64,000 nucleotides of DNA from an uncultured Gemmatimonadales bacterium (GTDB lineage: Bacteria; Gemmatimonadota; Gemmatimonadetes; Longimicrobiales; RSA9): positions 2,400,001 to 2,464,000 of the forward strand of contig OY970192.1 in the NCBI GenBank assembly GCA_963708135.1, read 5' to 3'. The notes beneath the pieces were generated by a model. The model was not told where the DNA came from and did not search any database. It worked only from the letters and a program-made list of their open reading frames with translations. Of the stretch, positions 11,549 through 27,997 are shown piece after piece; the stretch's first letter is position 1, and each line of letters opens with the position of its first letter. Both the position numbers and the translations under genes were made by a program.

Positions 11549-12309
11549 GGGCGCCCGGGCAGGGCCGTCAGCACCTTCGGGCCGTCCGCCTGGACCGCCA
11601 CGGTGTGCTCGAAGTGGGCGCTGCGCTTGCGGTCGGCGGTGACCACCGTCCAGCGGTCGGAGAGCGTGCGGACGGCGGCCTGCCCCTGGTTGACCATCGG
11701 CTCAATGGCGATGACGAGGCCGGCCTCGAGGCGCAGGCCGCGGCCGGCGTGGCCGAAGTTCGGCACGTTCGGCTCCTCGTGGGGGGAGCGCCCGATGCCG
11801 TGGCCGACGAGGTCGCGGACGACGCTGAAGCCGGCCTGCTCGGCGGTCGCCTGGACGGCGGCGCCGATGTCGCCGATGCGGTTGCCGGGGAGCGCGTGGG
11901 CGATGCCGCGGCGGAGCGCCTCCTGGGTGATGTCGAGGAGGCGCCGGGACTCGGCGTCCACCTCCCCCACGGGATAGGTGCGGGCGGCGTCGGCGTACCA
12001 GCCCTCGAGGCGCACGCCGGCATCGACACTGACGAGGTCGCCGGCGGCGAGCCTGCGGCGGCGGCTGGGGATGCCGTGGACGACCTCCTGGTTGACCGAG
12101 ATGCAGAGACTGGCGGGAAAGCCGTAGAGGCCCTTGAAGGCGGGCTCGGCGCCGGGGTGTGCGCGGATGAAGTCCTCGGCGAAGGCGTCGAGCTCGGCGG
12201 TCGTCACGTCGGGGCGGATCTCATCGGGGAGCGTCTCGAAGAGCCGGGCGAGGATGACGCCCGCGCGGGCGATGGCCTCGATCTCCTGCGGGGCCTTGAG
12301 GGAGATCAC
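11545..12309 (-). CDS. map: Methionine aminopeptidase type I
   Basis: CISVNQEVVHGIP, GHGIG, HEEP, AIEPM, SAHFEHT. Confidence 0.97.
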   Translation of the reverse strand: MISLKAPQEIEAIARAGVILARLFETLPDEIRPDVTTAELDAFAEDFIRAHPGAEPAFKGLYGFPASLCISVNQEVVHGIPSRRRRLAAGDLVSVDAGVRLEGWYADAARTYPVGEVDAESRRLLDITQEALRRGIAHALPGNRIGDIGAAVQATAEQAGFSVVRDLVGHGIGRSPHEEPNVPNFGHAGRGLRLEAGLVIAIEPMVNQGQAAVRTLSDRWTVVTADRKRSAHFEHTVAVQADGPKVLTALPGRP

Positions 12310-12953
12310 GAGGCGAGCACCCCCCCGATCGCATCCTGGACCTCCTCCACGCTGCGGTCGCCATCCACGTGGAGGACCGGCACGCCGCTATCCTCGTAGT
12401 GGGCGAGGATCGGCTCGGTCTGGGCGGCGTAGACGTCGAGGCGGCGGCGGACGGTCTCGGGCGCGTCGTCGTCGCGGCGGACGAGCGTGGCGCCACACGA
12501 GTCGCAGCGGTCCTCGACGCGGGGCGGCTCGAAGTGGACGTTGTAGACGGTCTTGCAGCCCGGGCAGGAGCGCCGGCCGGCGAGGCGCTTGACCAAGGTC
12601 TCGGAGTTGACGTCCAGGACGACGACGGCGTCGAGCGGCTTGCCGGTCTGCGCCAGGATGCCGTCCAGCGCCAGGGCCTGCGGCAGCGTGCGCGGGAAGC
12701 CGTCAAAGATGACGCCGCTCTCGGCCGCGGGGGAGGCGAGGGCCTCGCGCACGAGGCCGAGGATGACGCTGTCCGGGACGAGCTCGCCGGCGTCCATGTA
12801 GCCGCGCGCTTGCTGGCCGAGCGGCGTGCCCTGCCGCACGGCCTCGCGCAGGAGGTCGCCGGTGGAGAGGCGCAGGGCGCCGGAGCGTTCCGCGAGCAGG
12901 GCTCCCTGGGTGCCTTTTCCGGCACCGGGAGCCCCGAAGAGAATCAAGTTCAT
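12306..12953 (-). CDS. adk: Adenylate kinase
   Basis: MNLILFGAPGAGKGTQ, STGDLLR, DGFPRT, zinc lid CPGC..CDSC; ORF-track extension into the IS is spurious. Confidence 0.96.
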   Translation of the reverse strand: MNLILFGAPGAGKGTQGALLAERSGALRLSTGDLLREAVRQGTPLGQQARGYMDAGELVPDSVILGLVREALASPAAESGVIFDGFPRTLPQALALDGILAQTGKPLDAVVVLDVNSETLVKRLAGRRSCPGCKTVYNVHFEPPRVEDRCDSCGATLVRRDDDAPETVRRRLDVYAAQTEPILAHYEDSGVPVLHVDGDRSVEEVQDAIGGVLAS

Positions 12954-13005
12954 GAGCCGTTCGCCGTGTGTACGCGCGGCGCTACTGTAGCGTCCGACAA
13001 ATAGC

Positions 13006-13034
13006 TTGACACAAGGAGGCGCCGGGCGTATCCT
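13006..13034 (+). promoter_or_regulatory. Transposase promoter (sigma70), probably leaderless
   Basis: TTGACA-17 nt-TATCCT; ATG begins 7 nt after the -10. Confidence 0.7.
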
Positions 13035-13040
13035 TGCGCC

Positions 13041-14129
13041 ATGGCGCGACCTGTGTCCAAGATCGAGATCACCGACGCCGAACGGCAAGAGCTTGAGCGG
13101 CGTGTGAAGGCGCCCAGCGTGTCCAAGCGCGACAGCCTTCGTGCCGCCATCGTGCTGCGGCGCGGGCGCGGTCTCGGCCAGGTGCAGGTGGCGCGGGAGC
13201 TGGGCGTGAGCGCCGCGTGCGTCAACAAGTGGTCCCAACGCTTCGAGCGCGAAGGCCTGGACGGCCTGAAGGATCGAAAAGGACGGGGCCGGCGCCCCTC
13301 GATCCCGGCGCACAAGGTGGAGCAGGTCATCACGCGGGCGACTCGGCCGCCCAAGCCGTGCACGCGTTGGAGTGTGCGCACAATGGCCCGTGAGGTCGGG
13401 ATCTCGCCGGACAGCGTGCACCGGATCTGGCGGGCAAACGAGATCAAGCCGCACCTGACGCAGACGTTCAAGCTGTCGAACGATCCGCGCTTCGAGGAGA
13501 AGTTCTGGGACGTGATCGGGCTGTATCTCGATCCGCCCGAGAGGGCGCTGGTCCTGTGTTGTGACGAGAAGAGCCAGTGCCAGGCCTTGGAGCGCACCCA
13601 ACCGGGCTTACCCCTCGGCGTCGGGGAGATTCGCACCAAGACCCACGACTACACCCGCCACGGCACCATCACGCTGTTTGCTGCACTGAACTACCTCGAC
13701 GGCAAATTGATCGCGCGCACGGAAGAGCGTCACACGCACGTCGAGTGGCTTCGCTTCCTCAAGCAGATCGATCGGGAGACGCCCAAGGATCTCGATCTAC
13801 ACCTCGTCGTGGACAATTACTGCACGCACAAGCAAGAGAGCGTAACCCAGTGGCTTGCGAAGCATCCGCGCTTCCACCTTCACTTCACGCCGACCAGCTC
13901 GTCCTGGTTGAATCTCGTCGAGCGCTTCTTCGGAGAGCTGACGCAGGACGTGATTCGGGAGGGCAGCTTCTCCAGCGTACGCGAGCTGGTGAGTGACATC
14001 GAGAGCTACTTGGCCGAACGAAAGCTCCATCCCAAGCCGTACCGGTGGCGAGCCAAAGGCGAGGACATCTTGCGCAAGATCCAGCGTGCACGCGAGGCGC
14101 TCACCGCAGTACGCTCGGAGTCTTGTTAA
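13041..14129 (+). CDS. IS630 family DDE transposase
   Basis: N-terminal HTH, CCDEKSQ, THDYTRHGT, VVDNYCTHK, FTPTSSSWLNLVERFF. Confidence 0.96.
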   Translation: MARPVSKIEITDAERQELERRVKAPSVSKRDSLRAAIVLRRGRGLGQVQVARELGVSAACVNKWSQRFEREGLDGLKDRKGRGRRPSIPAHKVEQVITRATRPPKPCTRWSVRTMAREVGISPDSVHRIWRANEIKPHLTQTFKLSNDPRFEEKFWDVIGLYLDPPERALVLCCDEKSQCQALERTQPGLPLGVGEIRTKTHDYTRHGTITLFAALNYLDGKLIARTEERHTHVEWLRFLKQIDRETPKDLDLHLVVDNYCTHKQESVTQWLAKHPRFHLHFTPTSSSWLNLVERFFGELTQDVIREGSFSSVRELVSDIESYLAERKLHPKPYRWRAKGEDILRKIQRAREALTAVRSESC

Positions 14130-14154
14130 ATCAACTCAATTGGCAGACACTACA

Positions 14155-15468
14155 CTACATGTATCGCTGCCGGCCGCGGAACCGAACGCGGCCCTTCTTC
14201 ATGAAGCCCTCGTAGTGGCGCAGCAGGAGGTGCTGCTGCATCTGCTGTACGGTGTCGAGGGCGACGCCGACGACGATGAGCAGCGAGGTGCCGCCGAAGA
14301 GGAAGAGCTGGGCTCCCAGCGCCTGACTGACCCAGAACGGGAGCAGCGCGATCAGGGCCAGGTAGATGGAGCCGGGCAGCGTGATCCGGCTGAGCACGTA
14401 GTCGATGTACTCGACCGTGCGCGCCCCCGGCTTCACGCCGGGAATGAAGGCCCCCTGCTTCTTGAGGTTGTCCGCCAGATCGACCGGATTGAAGATGATC
14501 GCCGTGTAGAAGTAGGTGAAGAAGACGATCAGGATCGAGTAGGCGAGGTAGTAGCCGGGCGTGCCGACCTGCACGTAATCGGCGATCATCTTCAGGAACG
14601 GCACGTTGGCGAAGGTGGCGGCCGTCGTCGGCACGATGATGATCGACTGCGCGAAGATGATCGGCATCACGCCGGCCGAGTTGATGCGCAGCGGGATGAA
14701 GCTCTTCTGGCCCTCGCGGATCCGGCCTCGTCCCATGACCTTGCGCGGGATCTGGACGGGGATCTTGCGGGCGGCCATGGTCATGGCGACCACACCGGCC
14801 ACCACCCCGATCATGAGCAGGACGATCATTACCAGGGCCGGAATGCTGATGACGCTGGTGGTCACCGCCTCCCAGGTACGGGCGAGGGCGGAGGGGAAGC
14901 GGTCGATGATGTTGAAGAAGATCAGCAGCGACATGCCGTTGCCGATCCCCCGCTCGGTAATCATCTCCCCGAGCCACATGACGAAGACCGCGCCGCTGGT
15001 CATGATCAGCGCAGTGCTGATCATGAAGCTGAAGCCGGGGTAGCGCACCGCCCCCTGCATGCTCTGCAGGAACACCGCGTAGCCCCACGCCTGAAGGAAG
15101 GAGAGGGCGACGGTGGCGTAGCGGGTCCACTGCGTGAGCTTCTTCCGCCCGTCCTCGCCCTCCTTCTGCATCTTCTCGACCGTCGGGAAGACGGCCGCCA
15201 GCAGCTGGAACATGATGCTGGCGGAGATATACGGCATGATGCCGAGGGAGAAGATGGTCGCCCGCTGCAGGGCGCCGCCGACGAAGAGGTCGTAGAGGCC
15301 GAGCACGGTGCCCTGGAGCTGGCCGAACTGCTGCTGCAGCACGCCCACGTCGAGGCCCGGCGCGGTGATGTGGGCGCCGATGCGGTAGACGAAGAGCGCC
15401 AGGAGGGTGAAGAGGATCTTCTCCTTCAGCTCCGGGATCTTCCAGAGGTTGGGAATCGGGTTGGCCAT
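14155..15468 (-). CDS. secY: Preprotein translocase SecY
   Basis: LGIMPYISASI, ITERGIGNG, AGVMPIIFA, FIPGVKPG, GGTSLLIVVGV. Confidence 0.98.
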   Translation of the reverse strand: MANPIPNLWKIPELKEKILFTLLALFVYRIGAHITAPGLDVGVLQQQFGQLQGTVLGLYDLFVGGALQRATIFSLGIMPYISASIMFQLLAAVFPTVEKMQKEGEDGRKKLTQWTRYATVALSFLQAWGYAVFLQSMQGAVRYPGFSFMISTALIMTSGAVFVMWLGEMITERGIGNGMSLLIFFNIIDRFPSALARTWEAVTTSVISIPALVMIVLLMIGVVAGVVAMTMAARKIPVQIPRKVMGRGRIREGQKSFIPLRINSAGVMPIIFAQSIIIVPTTAATFANVPFLKMIADYVQVGTPGYYLAYSILIVFFTYFYTAIIFNPVDLADNLKKQGAFIPGVKPGARTVEYIDYVLSRITLPGSIYLALIALLPFWVSQALGAQLFLFGGTSLLIVVGVALDTVQQMQQHLLLRHYEGFMKKGRVRFRGRQRYM

Positions 15469-15472
15469 GCGC

Positions 15473-15925
15473 TCAGCTCTCCAGCAGCTCGACCGCGCCG
15501 CCCGCGGCCTCGATCTTGGCGCGGGCGCTCGCGCTCACGGCGTGGGTCCGAACGGTGAGCTTGCGGTCGATGTCGCCATCTCCAAGAAGCTTGATGGGCA
15601 GCTTCGAGCCCCTGCTGACGAGGCCGCTCGCGCCGAGGGTCTCGGGCGTGACCTCGTCGCCGTCGATGCGGCCGAGGTCGCGCAGGTTGACGACCGCGTA
15701 CTCCGTGCGGAACCGATTCGTGAAGCCGCGCTTCGGGACGCGCCGCTGGAGCGGCATCTGTCCCCCCTCGAACCAGGAGGGCATGCCGTGATGGCCGGTG
15801 CGGGCCTTCTGGCCCTTGTGACCCTTGCCGGCGGTCTTGCCCTTCCCCGAGCCGGGGCCGCGGCCGATGCGCTTGCGGCGGCGGTTGGCGCCGTCCGGGC
15901 TGCGCAGATTGCTGAGGTCCGTCAT
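15473..15925 (-). CDS. rplO: 50S ribosomal protein L15
   Basis: [27 protein letters not shown]. Confidence 0.98.
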
Positions 15926-16149
15926 TTCTGCTCCTCGCCTGCCTCGACCTCCTGGACGGCCACCAGGTGCTGGACCTGGAAGAGCATGCCCCGGATCGCG
16001 GGCGTATCCGTCTGAATGACCGACTGCTGATGCCGCCGCAGCCCGAGCGCACGCAGCGTCGCCCGATGCTTGCCCGGGCGACCGTTCCCGCTCCTGACCT
16101 GCGTGATCCTCAGCTTCCGCGGCGCGTCGGCCTCTTTCTTCCTAGCCAC
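15922..16149 (-). CDS. rpmD: 50S ribosomal protein L30
   Basis: LRITQVRS...TLRALGLRR...AIRGM. Confidence 0.95.
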
Positions 16150-16675
16150 GGCGTACCCCCAGCTCCTGGACGGTGATCCCTCGCTCCGCGGCCACCTGCT
16201 CGGCCGTCACCAGCTCCGTCAGACCGTTGAACGTGGCGCGGGCGACATTGATCGGGTTGTCCGAGCCGAGGCTCTTCGTGAGCACGTCGCTGATGCCGAC
16301 GGCCTCCAGCACGGCGCGCACGGGACCGCCCGCGATCACGCCCGTTCCGGCGCCGGCCGGCTTCAGCAGCACCCGGGCCGAGCCCTGCCTGCCGATGATC
16401 TCGTGCGGTATGGTTCCGGACTGCACCGGCACCTCGACCATGCCGCGCCGCGCCTGCTCGAGCCCCTTCCGGATCGCCTCCGCGACCTCGTTCGCCTTGC
16501 CGAGCGCGAGGCCGACCTTGCCCTTCTTGTCCCCCACCGCCACCAGCGCGGTGAAAGAGAAGCGCCGGCCGCCTTTCACGACCTTTGCGACGCGATTGAC
16601 GAACACGACGTTCTCGACGAGGTCCGACTGCTCCCGCCCCCGCCGGCCGCCCCCGCCTCTCTGGTCTCTAGCCAT
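16142..16675 (-). CDS. rpsE: 30S ribosomal protein S5
   Basis: [24 protein letters not shown]. Confidence 0.98.
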
Positions 16676-16711
16676 TCCGCTGCCTCTCCATTCGCGATGC
16701 GGGCACAGCCC

Positions 16712-17098
16712 TCAGAACTCCAGGCCGCCCTCGCGGGCGCCTTCCGCGAAAGCGGCGATGCGCCCGTGGTACAGGTAGCCGCCGCGATCGAACACGACGC
16801 CCGTGATCCCGGCCGCCTTCGCGCGCTCCGCCAGCAGGCGGCCGGCAGCGCGGCTTGCGGCGGTCTTGCTCAGCTCCTCCTCCTCGCCCTGCCGCTCGCG
16901 CAGCTCCGGCGCGAGGGTGGAAACGCCGAGGAGCATCTTGCCGCTGACGTCGTCCGTCAGGTGGCCCTGCATGTTTTTCAGCGAGCGGTGCACGACGAGG
17001 CGCGGCCGGTCCGCCGTGCCCTCGACCTTGCGGCGGACGCGGCGGTGCCTGCGCAGCCGCTGCTGCTCGCGATCTCTCGACTTCTGTCTGAATGCCAT
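16712..17098 (-). CDS. rplR: 50S ribosomal protein L18
   Basis: [30 protein letters not shown]. Confidence 0.97.
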
Positions 17099-17114
17099 GG
17101 TCCGTGTCCCCGGG

Positions 17115-17654
17115 CTACTTGGCGCCCGCCTTGCCGGCCTTGCGCCGGACTTGCTCACCCTGATAGCGGATCCCCTTGCCCTTGTAGGGCTCCGGCGGCC
17201 GAACCGCCCGGATCTCCGCCGCGACCTGTCCAACCTTTTCCTTGTCGATCCCCTCGACCAGCACCGTTGTCGGGGTGGGCGCCGTGAGCGAGATCCCCGC
17301 CGGCTCCGGGTATACGACGGTATGCGAGTAGCCCACGCTCAGGACCAGCGTGCCACCCTTCTTCTCCGCCCGGTAGCCGACGCCGATGATCTCGAGCGCG
17401 CGCCGGAAGCCGGCGGAGACGCCCTGCACCATGTTGGCGAGGAGCGCCCGCGTGAGGCCGTGCAGGGCGCGGTGCATCGTCTCGTCCGACGGCCGCTCGA
17501 CGAGGACCTGCCCGTCCTCGATCCGGATCGTCATCTCGGAGCGGAAGGTGCGCTCGAGCTCGCCCTTTGGCCCCTTCACCCGGACCGTCGCGCCGTCCAC
17601 GCTCACCGTGACACCGCTCGGGATCGGGATCGGCTTCTTGCCAATGCGTGACAT
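17115..17654 (-). CDS. rplF: 50S ribosomal protein L6
   Basis: MSRIGKKPI...[11 protein letters not shown]. Confidence 0.98.
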
Positions 17655-17670
17655 CAGTTCGTCTCTCCGC

Positions 17671-18063
17671 TCACCAGACCAGCGCCATGACTTCGCCACC
17701 CACGTTGCGGGCGCGCGCCTCCTTGTCCGACATGAGACCCTGCGGCGTGGAGACGATCGCGATGCCCAGGCCGCCGCGGACGCGCGGCAGCGCCGAGGCG
17801 CCGGAATAGGCGCGCCTGCCCGGGCGCGAGATGCGCTGCAGGTTCCGGATCACGGGCCGGTCCTCGTAGTACTTGAGGTAAAGGCGGAGCACGCCGTGAC
17901 GCCCGTCATCCAGCAGCTTGTAGTCGTGGATGAAGTGGTGCTCCTTGAGGACGCGCGCGATCTCGGTCTTGAGCTTGGAGGGAGGCACATCCACGCGGCG
18001 GTGCCGCGCCCCCCCTGCGTTGCGGATGCGCGTGAGCATGTCCGCGACAGGGTCCGTCATCAT
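17671..18063 (-). CDS. rpsH: 30S ribosomal protein S8
   Basis: [28 protein letters not shown]. Confidence 0.98.
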
Positions 18064-18075
18064 GTCGGTGATCTC

Positions 18076-18110
18076 TCCTATAGTATCCGGTCGCTGCCGG
18101 ACTTGTAGGA
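18076..18110 (-). promoter_or_regulatory. Putative S8-binding mRNA hairpin (16S helix-21 mimic) overlapping rpsH RBS
   Basis: UCCUAC-AAGUC-CGG-CAGCGA-CCG-GAUACU-AUAGGA; 3' arm contains the AGGA of the SD. Confidence 0.7.
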
Positions 18111-18127
18111 ACTGGGGAATCCAGCTC

Positions 18128-18313
18128 TTACCAGCTCGCCTTGCGAACGCCCGGGATCTCGCCGCGCAGCGACATCTCGCGGAAGCAGATACGGCACAGC
18201 CCGAACTTGCGGATGAAGGCCCGCGGCCGGCCGCAACGGGTGCAGCGGTTGCGGGTGCGGACGCCGAACTTCGGCTTGCGCCGCGACTTCTCGATGAGCG
18301 CCTTTCTGGCCAT
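18128..18313 (-). CDS. rpsN: 30S ribosomal protein S14 (zinc-binding type Z)
   Basis: 61 aa, [16 protein letters not shown]. Confidence 0.97.
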
Positions 18314-18342
18314 GTTCCTCTCGTCTCGGTGTGGCGGCGCGC

Positions 18343-18933
18343 TCAGACGGCCGCGCCGCTCAGCTCTTCGCCGGACACGATGACGGGCGTGCCGCCCCGG
18401 AACGGCATTCCCAGCTCGCGCAGCAGGGCGAACGCCTCGTCGTCCTTGTCGGTCGTGCTGACCATGACGATGTCCATCCCGTGCACCTGCGCGACCTTGT
18501 CGTACTCGATCTCGGGGAAGATGAGCTGCTCCTTGACCCCGAGGTTGTAGTTGCCGCGGCCGTCGAAGGAGCGCGTCGGCAGGCCGCGGAAATCACGGAT
18601 CCGCGGTATGGCCACGTTGATGAGCCGGTCCAGGAACTCATACATCCTGGGGCCACGCAGCGTGACCATGGCACCAATGGGCATTCCCTGCCGGATGCCG
18701 AAGTTGGAGATCGCCTTCCGCGCCCGCGTCACGACCGGCTTCTGGCCGGTGATCATTCCCAGCTCCTCGAGCACCGACTCGAGCAGCTTCGGGTTCTTCG
18801 GCGCCTCGCCGACGCCAACGTTCAGAACCACCTTCTCGATGCGCGGGACCCGCAGCGGGTTGTCGAAGCCGAATTCCTCCATGAGCTTCGGCTGGATCCG
18901 CTCCTCATAGTACTTCTGCAGTCTGGGCTTCAT
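18343..18933 (-). CDS. rplE: 50S ribosomal protein L5
   Basis: [22 protein letters not shown]. Confidence 0.98.
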
Positions 18934-18946
18934 CTGCTCCCGTTCC

Positions 18947-19330
18947 TTAGCCCTGCGGCTTCGGGATGGCGTTGCCGCTCTTGGCCGCGATCCGCTCCTT
19001 GGTGCCGCCCTCGTCGATGTGCGCGCGTGTCCGGGTCGGATCGCCGCTCTTCGGGTCGAGCAGCATCACGTTGGAGGCATGGATCGGCGCCTCGAAGGTG
19101 ATGATGCCGCCCTCCGGGTTGGCATCGCTGGGCCGGGTGTGCCGCTTGCGCAGGTTCACGCCCTCCACGACCACCCGATTCTCCTTGGCCAGGACGCGCA
19201 GGATCGTGCCCTCCATGCCGGCGTGGTTGCCTCGCGTCACGCGCACATGATCGCCGCGGCGCACGTGCATCTTCTGGCGCTTCTTCTGACTGTGGCGGGC
19301 GGTGCCCATGCCCATGACCATGCGGGTCAT
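18947..19330 (-). CDS. rplX: 50S ribosomal protein L24
   Basis: [22 protein letters not shown]; start could be 19270. Confidence 0.95.
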
Positions 19331-19698
19331 CAGATCACCTCCGGCGCGAGCGAGACGATCTTCATGAACCGCTTCTCGCGCAGCTCGCGGCCGACGGGGC
19401 CGAAAATGCGCGTGGCGCGCGGCTCGCCGGCGTCGTTGATGAGCACGGCCGCGTTGTCGTCGAACCGGATGTAGGAGCCATCCTTGCGGCGAGCCTCCTT
19501 CGCGGTGCGGACGACGACCGCCCGGGCGACCTCGCCCTTCTTGACGGTGCCGTGCGGGATGGCGTCCTTGATGGCGACGATGATGATGTCGCCCACACGC
19601 GCGTAGCGGCGGCCGGAGCCACCGAGGACGCGAATGCAGAGCGCCTCCTTGGCACCCGAGTTGTCCGCGATCTTGAGCCTGGTCTCCTGCTGGATCAT
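19330..19698 (-). CDS. rplN: 50S ribosomal protein L14
   Basis: [17 protein letters not shown]...SLAPEVI. Confidence 0.98.
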
Positions 19699-19708
19699 TG
19701 TCCGCGCC

Positions 19709-19972
19709 TCACTTCGCCCGCTCGACGATCTCGACGACCCGCCAGCGCTTCAGCTTGGACAGAGGCCGGGTCTCCATGATGCGGACCCTGTCGCCCGCGT
19801 GCGCCTGCCGCTCCTCATCGTGCGCGTAGTACCTCTTGGTGCGCGCGACCTTCTTGCCGTAGAGCCGGTGCGAGACTTGGCGCCCGACCGCGACGACGAC
19901 CGTCTTGTCCATGCGGTCGCTCACCACGGTTCCCACGCGCGTCTTGCGGCTCCCTCTCGTCTCGTCAGCCAT
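19709..19972 (-). CDS. rpsQ: 30S ribosomal protein S17
   Basis: [22 protein letters not shown]. Confidence 0.97.
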
Positions 19973-19980
19973 ATCCGGAC

Positions 19981-20187
19981 TCATTGCTGGGCCTGCTCAG
20001 CGAGCTCGCGCTCGCGCAGGATCGTCTTCATGCGCGCCAGGTCACGGCGCAGCGTCTTGAGCAGCGCCGTATTTTCGAGCTGCTGGGTGGCGCCGCGGAA
20101 CCGGAGCCGGAACAGCTCCTCGTGGATCTCGCCGATGCGGTCGGCGATCTCGCTCTCCGTCAGGTCCCTGATCTCGGCGGCCTTCAC
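19981..20187 (-). CDS. rpmC: 50S ribosomal protein L29
   Basis: GTG start KAAEIRDL...ELFRLRF...RRDLARMKT. Confidence 0.95.
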
Positions 20188-20615
20188 GCGTTGCCTCCCT
20201 CCGCACCGCGCTCGCGCACGATGAACTTCGTCTTGACGGGCAGCTTGGCGGCGGCCAGAGCGAAGGCGCGGCGGGCGATGTCTTCGGGCACGCCCTCGAG
20301 CTCGAACATCATGCGTCCCGGCTTGACCACCGCGACCCACATCTCCGGGCTGCCCTTGCCCTTCCCCATCCGCGTCTCCGCGGGCTTCTTCGTGACCGGC
20401 TTGTCCGGGAAGATGCGAATCCAGACCTTGCCGCCACGCTTGATGTGACGCGTCATGGCGACACGGGCGGCCTCGATCTGCCGGTTGGTGATCCAGCCCG
20501 GCTCCATCGTCTGCAAGCCGTAATCGCCAAAGGAAACGGCGTTGCCCCGCGTGGCCATGCCGCGCGTGCGACCCTTCTGCTGCTTGCGGTACTTGACTCT
20601 CTTCGGCGCCAGCAT
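20184..20615 (-). CDS. rplP: 50S ribosomal protein L16
   Basis: [11 protein letters not shown]...ETRMGKGKG. Confidence 0.98.
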
Positions 20616-20629
20616 GGCTCCTGCCCCTA

Positions 20630-21289
<660 letters not shown>

Positions 21290-21290
21290 G

Positions 21291-21641
21291 TTACTCCTTA
21301 CGATCCACGACGATCACGACATGGCTGGTCGGCCGCCGGATCGGCGCCGCACGGCCCATGGCGGCGGCGCGCCAGCGCTTGAGGCGCGGGCCTTCGTTGA
21401 CGAAGGCTTCCCTGACGACGAGGTCGTCAACGTCCACGAACTCGCCCGCGTCCTCCGCCTTGGCCCGCGCGTTGGCGACGGCCGAGCGCAGCGTCTTGTC
21501 GATCTGCACCGCAGCCCGCTTCTTCGAGAACTGGAGCAGCGCGTACGCCTCGCCCACGCCGCGACCCCGGATGAGGTCCGCGACGAGCCGCATCTTGCGC
21601 GGGCTCTGCCGGATATGCCTGGACTCTGCCCGAGCTTTCAT
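21291..21641 (-). CDS. rplV: 50S ribosomal protein L22
   Basis: [20 protein letters not shown]. Confidence 0.98.
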
Positions 21642-21642
21642 C

Positions 21643-21930
21643 TCACCTCGCCCTGGATCGCTTGTCCGCCAGCTTGCCGCCGTGCCCGCGGAAGAGCCGC
21701 GTGGGCGAGAACTCGCCCAGCTTGTGGCCGACCATGTTCTCCGTGACGTAGACGGGAATGAACTTGTTCCCGTTGTGCACGGCGAGGGTGTGGCCGACGA
21801 AGTCCGGGGAGATCATCGACGCCCTCGACCAGGTCTTCACGACCCGCCTCTCGTTCCTCGAGTTCATCTGCTGGATCTTGCCCAGCAGCTTCGGCTCGAT
21901 GTGCGGCCCCTTCTTGATCGATCTCGACAT
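21643..21930 (-). CDS. rpsS: 30S ribosomal protein S19
   Basis: [18 protein letters not shown]. Confidence 0.98.
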
Positions 21931-21946
21931 GGCTCGGTCGTATCCC

Positions 21947-22786
21947 TCAGCTCGTGGCCTTGCCGCGCTTACGGCCGCGGACGATGTGCTGGTTCGACTT
22001 CTTCTTGTGGTCGCGCGTCTTCCTGCCCTCGGGCTTGCCCCAGGGCGAGACGGGCGGCCGGCCGCCCGACGTCCGACCCTCGCCGCCGCCCAGCGGGTGG
22101 TCCACGGGATTCATGGCGACGCCGCGCACCTTGGGCCGGCGGCCGCGCCAGCGGCTCGCGCCCGCCTTGCCGATGGTCTGCAGGTTGTGATCGCCGTTGC
22201 CGACCTGGCCGATCGTGGCGAAGCAGGTCCGGTGGATCATGCGGACCTCCGTCGAGGGCATCCGCAGCGTCACGTAGTCGCCCTCCTTGGCCATCACCTG
22301 GGCGCCGGCGCCGGCGGTGCGGACGAGCTGTGCCCCCTTGCCGCGCTTCATCTCCAGGTTGTGGACCACCGTGCCCAGGGGGATCTCCGCCAGGGGCAGG
22401 GCGTTGCCCACCCGGATGTCGGAGCCGGGCCCGCTCACCACCGTTTCCCCCGGGGCGAGCCCCTTGGGGTGCAGGATGTAGCGCTTGTCGCCGTCCGCGT
22501 AGTGGACGAGCGCGATGTTGGCGCTGCGGTTCGGGTCGTACTCGATCTCGGCGATCCTGCCCGGCACGCCGATCTTGTCGCGCTTGAAGTCGATCTTGCG
22601 GTAAACGCGCTTCGCGCCACCGCCGCGCCGGCGCGAGGTGATCCGGCCGTGGTGATTGCGGCCGCCGGACTTCTTGAGCGGCTCGGTCAGCGACTTCTCC
22701 GGTCCCCGTCGCGTCACGACGTCGTGCTCGACGACGGCCCGGAAGCGGCTGGACGCGGTGACAGGCTTGAACTTCTTGATCGGCAT
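21947..22786 (-). CDS. rplB: 50S ribosomal protein L2
   Basis: [26 protein letters not shown]. Confidence 0.98.
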
Positions 22787-22790
22787 CGGA

Positions 22791-23081
22791 CTAGATCCCC
22801 TCGTAGACGTCGATGCGCTCGCCCGGGGCGAGCTTGACGATCGCCTTCTTGTAGCCGGGCCGGCGGCCGATGCTGCGGCCGACGCGGCGCAGCTTGCCGC
22901 GGTAGTTCATGGTCCGCACGTCGGCGACGCGCACGGCGAACAGCCGCTCGACGGCGTTACGGATCTCGATCTTGTTGGACTCGGGCGCGACGATGAAGGC
23001 GTACGCGCCCTCATTCTCGCCCATGTCCGTGGACCGCTCCGTGACGACGGGGCGGATCAGGACCTCGCGCGGGCTACGCAT
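22791..23081 (-). CDS. rplW: 50S ribosomal protein L23
   Basis: [25 protein letters not shown]. Confidence 0.96.
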
Positions 23082-23706
23082 GGGCCACCTCCCCGGCGCG
23101 CTCGAGCGCGGGCTCCTCGATGATGAGCGTGTCGGCCCAGAGCACGTCATACGCGGACTCGGTGCCGAAGGCCTGCACCTGGACGCCCGAAAGGTTACGG
23201 GCGGAGCGGTAGACGAGCGGCTTGTGGCCGTCGGTCAGGATCAGCACGTTGCCGCTCGTGCCGGCGGCGGCCAGGAGCTGCGTGATGCGGCGCGTCTTCG
23301 GCGCATCGAAGTCGAGGGCATCCACAACCAGCACCGCTCCGTCCTGGGCCCGCGCGTTGTAGGCGGAGCGCCGCGCGAGCCAGCGCACCTTCCGCGGCAC
23401 GGCCTCGTGGAAGTTCCGGTTCGCCCGCGGGCCGAAGACGTTACCGCCTCCGCGCCAGTGCGGCGCACGCGTGGAGCCCACGCGCGCCCGGCCGGTGCCC
23501 TTCTGGCGCCATGGCTTGCTGTTGCCGCCGGACACGTAGCGGCGGGTCTTCGTGGCCGCCGTCGCCTGGCGCTGGTTGGCCAGGTAGGCCTTCACGGTCT
23601 GCCACATGGCGGCCTCGTGGATCGTGCCGTCGAAGAGCGTGTCCGGAAGCTCCGTCTCGGCCGACTTCTTCTCGCCCTCGGCCGTAAAGGCGGCTGCCTT
23701 GAACAT
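23074..23706 (-). CDS. rplD: 50S ribosomal protein L4
   Basis: [15 protein letters not shown]. Confidence 0.97.
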
Positions 23707-23732
23707 CGTCGAATCTCCCGCGCCCGCCACGA

Positions 23733-24353
23733 TTATACCTTCCTCAGGAACACGAGGCTGTTGCGCGCCCCCGGGACCGCGCCACGGACGAAGATCAGGT
23801 TGCGCCCGGCGTCCACACGCTCCACGCGCACGTTGCGCAGCGTGTGCTGCTGTCCGCCCATCTGCCCCGGCATCTTCTTGCCCTTGATCACGCGTGACGG
23901 GTTCGTGCCAGGACCGAGAGAGCCGACGTTGCGCGCCTTCGGGTGCCCATGGGAGCCGGGGCGTCCGCGGAAGCCGTGGCGCTTCATGGCGCCCTGGAAG
24001 CCGCGGCCCTTCGTCGTGCCGACCACCTTGATTCGCTGGCCGGCCTCGAACTGCTCGACCGTCAGCTGCTGGCCCGGCTCGAAGCCCTCGGGCTCGGCGA
24101 CGCGGAACTCGTGCAGCGTACGCGGCGCGTACTCCAGCCCGGCACGGGCGGCGTGGCCGCGCTCGGCGCGCGTGCTGCGGCGCTCCTTGCGGGCGCCCCA
24201 GCCGAGCTGGATGGCCGTATAGCCGTCCGTCTCCGCGGTCTTGACCTGCGTCACGGGGCAGGGGCCGGCCTCGATCACGGTGACCGGCACGGCGCTGCCA
24301 TCCTCTTTGAAGATCTGGGTCATCCCCAGCTTGCGTCCGATGAGTGCCGACAT
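23733..24353 (-). CDS. rplC: 50S ribosomal protein L3
   Basis: GRKLGMTQIF, KGRGFQG, KGKKMPG. Confidence 0.97.
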   Translation of the reverse strand: MSALIGRKLGMTQIFKEDGSAVPVTVIEAGPCPVTQVKTAETDGYTAIQLGWGARKERRSTRAERGHAARAGLEYAPRTLHEFRVAEPEGFEPGQQLTVEQFEAGQRIKVVGTTKGRGFQGAMKRHGFRGRPGSHGHPKARNVGSLGPGTNPSRVIKGKKMPGQMGGQQHTLRNVRVERVDAGRNLIFVRGAVPGARNSLVFLRKV

Positions 24354-24357
24354 CGCC

Positions 24358-24666
24358 CTAGTCCACCTTGATCTCGACGTCCACACCGGCCGGCAGATCC
24401 AGCTTGGTGAGCGCGTCGATCGTCTGGGGCCGCGAGTCGATGATGTCGATGACCCGCTTATGGGTCTTCAGCTCGAACTGCTCGCGGCTCTTCTTGTCCA
24501 CGTGGGGCGAGCGCAGCACGGTCCAACGCTGGATCCGCGTCGGTAGCGGGATCGGGCCGCTGACGCGCGCACCGCTCTTCTCCGCCGTGCGGACGATGTC
24601 CGAGGCGGTCTGGTCGATGACGGCGTGGTCGAACGCCTTGAGCCGGATCCTGATCTTGCCAGCCAT
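24358..24666 (-). CDS. rpsJ: 30S ribosomal protein S10
   Basis: [24 protein letters not shown]. Confidence 0.98.
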
Positions 24667-24693
24667 AGTCTCTTTTCTCTCGCGCGTGCCGCG

Positions 24694-25887
<1,194 letters not shown>

Positions 25888-25899
25888 GATCTCTTCTCC

Positions 25900-27997
<2,098 letters not shown>

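Follow-up and report, generated by a model that had tools for sequence, protein, structure and literature searches.

A hairpin resembling 16S rRNA helix 21 in front of rpsH in Gemmatimonadota, a candidate operator for ribosomal protein S8

How do bacteria far from Escherichia coli adjust the synthesis of ribosomal protein S8, and could the short spacer in front of its gene take part in it? Outside the Gammaproteobacteria the regulation of the longest ribosomal-protein operon is an acknowledged gap, and a passage of a 2024 review calls the regulation of the spc operon outside E. coli-like bacteria unknown (PMC10931766). The window analysed here is a stretch of 64,000 nucleotides (nt) from contig OY970192.1 of an uncultured Gemmatimonadales bacterium (GCA_963708135.1, positions 2,400,001 to 2,464,000), and all positions below are those of the whole stretch. 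Its ribosomal protein genes lie on the minus strand, and the spacer between rpsN and rpsH holds a hairpin with the core letters of helix 21, the S8-binding site of 16S ribosomal RNA (rRNA). We consider it probable, at a rough 0.78, that this hairpin is a translational operator that S8 (uS8) would recognise by rRNA mimicry.

Read 5' to 3', the spacer and the start codon of rpsH run GAGCUGGAUUCCCCAG-UUCCUA-C-AAGUC-CGG(CAGCGA)CCG-GAUACU-A-UAGGAG-AGAUCACCGAC-AUG. The lower helix is followed by two core strands that face each other, with a mismatch between the C equivalent to position 594 of E. coli 16S rRNA and the A equivalent to 645, and then by a 4-bp upper stem that consists of the C599-G639 equivalent and CGG/CCG. 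The distal stem-loop stands in for the long distal part of helix 21, and it differs in length and sequence among the relatives, which have 6-22 nt between the equivalents of C599 and G639. A preliminary description of this DNA had drawn the hairpin exactly to the base on the minus strand. It had also placed the ribosome binding site of rpsH in the 3' arm, where the Shine-Dalgarno (SD) sequence AGGAG is indeed found within UAGGAG, 11 nt before the AUG and as the sole SD-like run there, and the E. coli numbering that it gave agrees with rrsH of MG1655, in which AAGUC is 595-599 and GAUACU 639-644. Covariance models match the hairpin at 59.4 bits (model R1, E 1.2e-10, genome positions 2418072-2418113) and at 52 bits (model R2).

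The rpsH loci of related genomes were retrieved through the S8 protein, and thus without bias on the RNA. In a sample from the same order, made up of the window genome and 28 relatives, the element stands before rpsH in 21 of 29 loci. The family of the window genome (f1) has it in 15 of 17 loci, the two others having a 22-nt spacer or overlapping genes, and family f3 has it in six of six; in family f2 (L025, L026, L028-L031) it was found in none of six loci, and there rplE lies directly before rpsH with no rpsN between. Family f5, of a second order, carries it in 22 of 26 loci from 25 genomes. No element was found in the 30 loci of family f4, where only short spacers separate rpsN from rpsH (about 10-25 nt in most, by eye from 0 to about 40). 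The element spans three families of two orders of Gemmatimonadota, and its presence follows the length of the spacer. It is always directly 5' of rpsH, and the distance from the end of the helix to the start codon, 8-20 nt overall, is nearly fixed, with 8-16 nt in the own-order loci and 15-20 nt in f5.

Model R2, built on 43 sequences and run on 151 genomes sampled across the phylum, had hits in 22 of them and exactly one in each, namely in the window genome itself, both f3 genomes (2/2) and 19 of 31 from f5; there were no hits in f1 (0/1), f2 (0/16), f4 (0/71) and f6 to f12 (0/29), all these counts being lower bounds with stricter filters for samples of more than 40 genomes. R1 undercounts: it found the element in 8 of 31 f5 genomes, whereas retrieval by way of the protein, on another sample drawn from this family, gave 22 of 26 loci. 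Three of the aligned sequences, which are also part of R2, are L018, L024 and L207 (genomes G016, G020 and G195), and G015, G181, G217 and G234 add only to the counts of loci without the element; the conclusions are independent of all these genomes, which the quoted counts include.

The reading of the preliminary description would have been refuted by a core that relatives do not keep, and the protein-retrieved spacers do keep it, together with covariation. Alignment A2 comprises 43 such sequences with 12 pairs and 508 cells, and 97.0% of the cells are standard pairs, compared to 33-53% pairing in a control in which the partner was slid by 1-3 columns. Double changes occur in 8 of the 12 pairs (53 cells). 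None of 500 shuffles matched any of five measures, a statistic that is inflated by the relatives not being independent, and the count of pair types is a safer indicator. The pair equivalent to 596-644 is AU in 21 sequences, CG in 19 and GC in 3, and it is unpaired in none. Around it the core hardly moves: the G597-C643 equivalent is GC and the C599-G639 equivalent C-G in 43 of 43, the pair adjoining the latter is formed in all of them, the equivalents of G639, A640, A642 and C643 are fixed throughout with A642 unpaired, and the opposition of U598 and A640 is kept in 42. At 641, which the model leaves unpaired, the base is U or A. The 595 equivalent is A in 38 sequences, G in 4 and C in 1, and three of the four with G595 combine it with C594 and C596-G644, as in the Thermus-type triple. 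Positions 594 and 645 are mismatched in 36 of 43. Five of the six pairs of the lower helix show double changes (columns 8-44, for instance, are AU in 26, CG in 8, GC in 3, UG in 3 and other in 3), and the helix covaries in this way despite its SD content; in L198 both arms are wholly different, GCCAC/GUGGC.

A wider view comes from a scan of 185,579 species genomes with the pattern TCCTNNMNGTC-N(4-34)-GAWACNNNAGGAG-N(6-14)-ATG, which leaves positions 593, 594, 596, 644, 645 and 646 free. It gave at least 120 loci, and among the matches listed the S8 gene follows 47. These 47 have an S14 match upstream in 46 cases and a name of Gemmatimonadota lineage in 44 (Gemmatimonas, Gemmatimonadaceae, Gemmatimonadales, Roseisolibacter, Longimicrobium and Longimicrobiales are all represented), while one is named plainly 'bacterium'. 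These names fit the Gemmatimonadota that the preliminary description had pointed to. The other 73 of the 120 listed loci are chance matches, e.g. in a conserved coding stretch of Arthrobacter, and served as a control. Among the matches listed, 596-644 is Watson-Crick in 44 of 45 distinct S8-linked sequences (AU 12, CG 13, GC 19) against 18 of 67 distinct controls, 593-646 is paired in 42 of 45 against 25 of 67, 594/645 is mismatched in 44 of 45 against 37 of 67, and at least two contiguous distal pairs are present in 45 of 45 against 20 of 67. Some of the scan records are probably of the same species as the relatives, so that the scan and the protein-retrieved sets are not independent. The remaining two of the 47 loci are on contigs of metagenome-assembled genomes (MAGs) labelled Ca. 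Kuenenia stuttgartiensis (L180) and Verrucomicrobiota (L186), with a Gemmatimonas-type element together with S14-S8 genes; L186 and a Gemmatimonas MAG (L174) have one and the same motif, and L180 and L186 are both probably binning errors.

What does the core have in common with the site on the ribosome? In helix 21 the S8 site consists of a helix that a conserved internal loop breaks up, and its base triples are A595-(A596-U644) and (G597-C643)-U641; the invariant A642 is the only conserved base-specific protein contact, Tyr85 of S8 contacts G597, and T. thermophilus has the triple G595-(C596-G644) (PMC4176348). The hairpin resembles helix 21 (E. coli 588-603/635-651) in the letters of the loop, in strand order and in having the loop flanked by a helix on either side. 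The hairpin varies where the rRNA does (596-644, 641 and 595), and in the same manner, 596-644 being A-U in E. coli and C-G in Thermus (PMC4176348). At the level of letters the hairpin has the features of a helix-21-type S8 motif, with 641 free for a triple. The S8 of the window has 50% identity with that of E. coli, and on its RNA-binding surface it retains the aligned Tyr and Ser-Thr. Helix 21 of the 16S rRNA of the window genome reads GGGC-AAGUC-GGAAG...CUCCC-GAAACU-GCCUG, and the hairpin departs from it in several ways: the rRNA has 39 nt between the C599 and G639 equivalents whereas the hairpins have a stem of 2-7 bp and a small loop, 594/645 is a C-G pair in the rRNA but usually mismatched in the hairpin, and the proximal helix of the hairpin is the SD region, unlike that of the rRNA.

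From the sequence we infer S8 binding, repression and a tuning of affinity, perhaps with an effect on rplF and later genes, and the steps could be as follows. S8 in excess over free 16S rRNA would bind the asymmetric internal loop of the hairpin, in which a bulged A595 equivalent, a Watson-Crick 596-644 pair, G597-C643, the U598/A640 opposition, a flipped 641 and A642 would take part. Binding would clamp the lower helix, whose 3' arm is the SD of rpsH (or lies directly adjacent to it in some relatives), and with the SD and the landing zone occluded the 30S subunit could not load and translation of rpsH would go down, while free mRNA would initiate. The 594/645 mismatch probably weakens the mRNA site in comparison to the rRNA, so that ribosome assembly would be served first. 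In those f5 members that have a second SD-like run or an arm that is not SD-like, a steric block would be a more fitting mode of action than SD pairing. The AUG of rplF is 16 nt past the rpsH stop and has its own GGAGAG before it; the coupled repression of rplF-rplR-rpsE that the preliminary description proposed is possible, and this 16-nt gap is all that speaks for it.

A number of observations weigh against an operator of this kind. The likeness to helix 21, as far as it can be read from the letters, is confined to about 11 core nucleotides and the architecture, and R2 with its filters off had no hit on helix 21 in either the 16S rRNA of the window genome or that of E. coli, nor on the E. 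coli operator; we rejected R2 as a test of mimicry because lower-helix sequence dominates the model. At 641, a position that does vary within the element family, the operator carries U and the genome's own rRNA carries A. The core is not without exceptions, in that 598 is A in L209, 596-644 is a mismatch (A/C) in L132, and 595 is C in 4 of 45 S8-linked hits among the matches listed; 594/645 is paired in 7 of the 43 aligned sequences. To the inflated shuffle statistics should be added that the scan pattern fixed the core letters and therefore gives no evidence on their invariance. On the side of translation, the 11 nt from AGGAG to AUG is a rather long spacing, several f5 members have, past the helix and ahead of the AUG, another purine-rich SD-like run, and some f5 3' arms are not SD-like (GUGGC in L198), so strict SD sequestration is not universal.

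Folding prediction adds another such point, as the lower helix is absent from the minimum-energy fold of ViennaRNA. This fold (-28.4 kcal/mol) consists of an upstream 7-bp hairpin and the distal stem, with the SD mostly open (unpaired probability 0.38-0.88), and the best fold compatible with the operator has -23.5 kcal/mol in a nearest-neighbour model that cannot score base triples. Since the minimum-energy fold leaves the SD largely open and the operator fold is less stable, closure plausibly needs the protein. The 3' arm of the upstream hairpin shares three bases with the lower helix, those that begin the 5' arm of the latter, and the upstream hairpin may be an anti-sequestering competitor of operator closure. 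A hairpin like it was seen by eye in two relatives only among the listed sequences (L005 and L007).

The alternative that survives best, though we find it unlikely, is that the hairpin binds S8 and has its main role as an mRNA stabiliser, a processing signal or a leader behind an internal promoter. As a stabiliser or processing signal it would separate the proximal (rplN-rpsN) from the distal (rpsH onward) part of the spc transcript, and behind an internal promoter S8 would control the fate of a transcript or a separate transcription unit. A Longimicrobium-type relative (L020) whose rpsN-rpsH spacer measures about 185 nt has a promoter-like TTGACG-18-TATCGT (L020:1386-1415) some 30 nt upstream of the element, and this site may hint at an own rpsH promoter in some lineages, but L023, a relative of L020, has no promoter-like match. 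Many relatives have 100-190 nt of spacer upstream of the element, which would speak for this alternative; against it, the spacer of the window is only 64 nt and a scan of the coding strand over 17600-19200 found neither promoter-like nor terminator-like sites. That the SD-like run of some f5 members lies 3' of the helix and not inside it would also suit a role away from the SD; the near-fixed 8-20 nt to the start codon argues for translation initiation as the target.

Less probable still is a hairpin that masks the SD or has another structural role without S8 binding, for example in tuning of translation, in thermosensing or as a site for another protein, with the likeness to helix 21 being coincidental. 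A lower helix that overlaps the SD would by itself lower initiation, and the failure of the element's covariance model to find helix 21 fits as well. A plain masking stem would however give no reason for A640 and A642 being invariant and unpaired, for the bulge at 595 and for an invariant G597-C643 amid pairs that covary, and it would not explain the same core in front of rpsH in an Arthrobacter family, where the lower helix and the flanking genes are different and the element is found in 28 of 30 loci by detector and in the other two by eye.

A short core may also turn up by coincidence. With both strands of the 5.45-Mb genome counted, AAGTC(6-70 nt)GATACT has three occurrences, one of them the rpsH site. 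A structural detector (GUC...GANAC, Watson-Crick 596-644, at least three contiguous upper pairs and at least four of five lower pairs) gave 219 hits in 10.9 Mb, among them both 16S helix-21 copies and the rpsH site, which corresponds to an expectation of about 0.001 hits in a 64-nt spacer; its background was 34 hits per 671,900 nt, or about 1 per 20 kb. Conservation is a stronger argument than this expectation, and a functionless chance resemblance in one genome, for which the short core and the many hits of a loose detector in a GC-rich genome could speak, is refuted by the conserved position of the element, which recurs in 43 of the 55 loci that were retrieved through the protein from three families and in 47 further public loci among the matches listed, and by its compensatory changes.

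If the hairpin is an S8 operator, is it that of E. coli? The characterised operator of E. coli and its relatives overlaps the start of rplE (PMC3616713, PMC10931766; Cerretti 1988, Gregory 1988 and Merianos 2004, cited in PMC3616713, PMC10931766 and PMC4176348), it has the triple A+80-(A+81-U+11) (PMC4176348), and this type is described as confined to Gammaproteobacteria (PMC3616713). [quoted passage not shown] The preliminary description had held that the gammaproteobacterial operator lies at rplE and not before rpsH, and so it does, with a different topology too. At the E. coli site GAAACU (+6..+11) pairs with CAAGUC (+79..+84) over about 70 nt of coding sequence, i.e. it is permuted, with the strands in the opposite order around a loop of about 65 nt, while the window element is a local hairpin of 35-50 nt in the strand order of the rRNA. 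The initiation region is on the proximal (588-594/645-651) side of the core in the window and on the distal side in E. coli, and an element between rpsN and rpsH cannot directly block the upstream genes rplN to rpsN. Because its position and topology differ, the element falls outside the gammaproteobacterial S8 operator family.

The 33-nt rpsN-rpsH spacer of E. coli has no such element, and a relaxed detector for permuted sites found nothing at the rplE start of the window, with the E. coli control positive. A first, stricter version of this detector was discarded after it missed the E. coli control. The sole hit of the permuted detector in the S10-spc cluster, at 21154-21184 on the minus strand, has G at 641 and is some 2.2 kb away from the rplE start, on its upstream side; we take it as chance.

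The element has a counterpart in a second lineage. In an Arthrobacter genome (G216, L224:1390-1500), whose family we take to be Micrococcaceae, rplE lies directly before rpsH and the spacer holds AAAAGGUCCG...CGGAAACCGUUAUGAGGAAGG. With the detector set to require one upper pair, the element was found in 28 of 30 loci of this family (L224, L225, L226 and L320-L347 being those listed), and the other two show an AGGUC...GAAACC core by eye. The lower helices covary here as well (CGUAA/UUACG, CGCCC/GGAGCG, UAUUA/UAAUA), and the distal hairpins range from 7 to 94 nt while the distance to the rpsH start is fixed at 21-24 nt. A wider sample of Actinomycetota has the element in only 3 of 30 loci. R2 found no S8 site in the Arthrobacter and Oscillospiraceae loci (the best E value in the R2 runs, 0.34, was spurious), and because R2 misses it the Arthrobacter-family element is not a sequence relative of the one in Gemmatimonadota, which is also placed behind rpsN instead of rplE.

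Elsewhere the detector, which demands the exact architecture so that other designs would escape it, flagged no locus among 30 in the phylum to which an Oscillospiraceae MAG belongs, none among 30 in that of an Ignavibacteriae MAG, and none in five single MAGs of Ignavibacteriae, Cryptobacteroides, Acidobacteriota, Chloroflexia and Pirellulales. One Oscillospiraceae MAG (L220:1360-1500) has GGGUC...GAUACC around a long GC-rich hairpin in an rpsN-rpsH spacer of about 140 nt, with a lower (proximal) helix that does not fit the detector, and a second Oscillospiraceae locus (L221) is doubtful. We lean, by a narrow measure, towards hairpin S8 operators before rpsH being a distinct class of leader that has arisen repeatedly, in Gemmatimonadota, in Micrococcaceae and perhaps in some Clostridia, with a common core and unrelated flanking helices, and with S8 controlling only the distal half of spc, from its own gene onward. 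If so, the spc operon would be split into two regulatory units, unlike in E. coli where the single site at rplE governs the whole.

The preliminary description had proposed a new position for a ribosomal protein leader (r-leader). An Rfam family at this position would have refuted the proposal, and none in Rfam 15 covers the element: at permissive thresholds there was only noise in the window over 12000-26000 and 18030-18160 and in the loci L224, L020 and L212. As no Rfam 15 model hits the E. coli S8 operator either, at E up to 1, this silence says little. Full-text literature searches, subscription-only papers not covered, gave no description of an S8 leader before rpsH, and a paper on the r-leaders of bacilli (PMC3849166) has no S8 leader. 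The predicted r-leaders of Eckert and Weinberg 2020 that imitate rRNA (PMC7247131: L20, eL15, S15, S4) belong to the same class of evidence, namely a covarying conserved structure 5' of the presumed ligand's gene that looks like the rRNA site of this ligand. Of the 20 new leaders in Table 1 of that study none is given S8 for a ligand or rpsH for a target gene, and outside file 2 the searchable supplements contain none of the terms rpsH, rplE and Gemmatimonad. The proposal stands as far as Rfam and descriptions go, but the position is not unique to this genome or phylum, as the Arthrobacter family has an analogous element. In yeast the intron of RPS22B, a uS8 homologue, is reported to mediate autoregulation by a stem with two bulge loops that has been likened to bacterial S8 sites (PMC13232506); it differs in being eukaryotic and in inhibiting splicing and not translation initiation, and we set it beside the hairpin by description only.

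The hairpin is a concrete candidate for an S8 operator in a little-studied phylum, when S8 autocontrol is so far known only at rplE in E. coli-like bacteria. With a size of 35-50 nt, defined contact nucleotides and natural variants of 596-644 (A-U, C-G and G-C) it is suited to binding, structural and reporter work, and the elements of Gemmatimonadota and Micrococcaceae would be independent solutions in which the evolution of rRNA mimicry and the weakening of mRNA sites could be studied. The element also supplies a missing model for annotation, as Rfam has no family for S8 leaders. The features of the locus are collected in Table 1; downstream of rpsH the order on the minus strand is rplF, rplR and rpsE.

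Table 1. Positions of genes and hairpin parts at the rpsN-rpsH spacer; equivalents refer to E. coli 16S rRNA.
Feature	Position	Strand	Basis
rplE	18933-18343	-	ORF (open reading frame) list, NCBIfam
rpsN, type Z S14, 61 aa (amino acids), 5' of the element	18313-18128	-	NCBIfam NF005974, 110 bits vs cut-off 77
rpsN stop UAA	18130-18128	-	
rpsN-rpsH intercistronic spacer, 64 nt	18127-18064	-	sequence
Upstream 7-bp hairpin GAGCUGG(AUUCC)CCAGUUC, right after the rpsN stop	18127-18109	-	minimum-energy fold
Whole candidate operator hairpin: lower helix, S8-type asymmetric internal loop, 4-bp upper stem, hexaloop	18111-18075	-	
Lower-helix 5' arm UUCCUA, partner UAGGAG	18111-18106	-	A2 columns 3-8 x 44-49
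Core 5' strand: C (594 equivalent); AAGUC (595-599 equivalents)	18105; 18104-18100	-	
Distal stem CGG / CCG; loop CAGCGA	18099-18097 / 18090-18088; 18096-18091	-	
C599-G639 equivalent pair	18100-18087	-	
Core 3' strand: GAUACU (639-644 equivalents); A (645 equivalent)	18087-18082; 18081	-	
Lower-helix 3' arm UAGGAG; with rpsH SD AGGAG	18080-18075; 18079-18075	-	
rpsH, S8, 130 aa, presumed ligand and regulated gene	18063-17671	-	NCBIfam NF001109, 174.9 bits vs 119
rpsH AUG	18063-18061	-	

Two minor observations concern the relatives. One genome (G204) has two near-identical rpsH loci on different contigs, L209 and L218, with A and U respectively at 598, and the pair is either strain heterogeneity or an assembly duplicate. 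In L013, L014, L021, L199 and L208 repetitive or palindromic inserts of 100-190 nt lie between rpsN and the element or replace it, with units in the form of GGGATT-like, TGAATT-like and CAACAGC-like runs.

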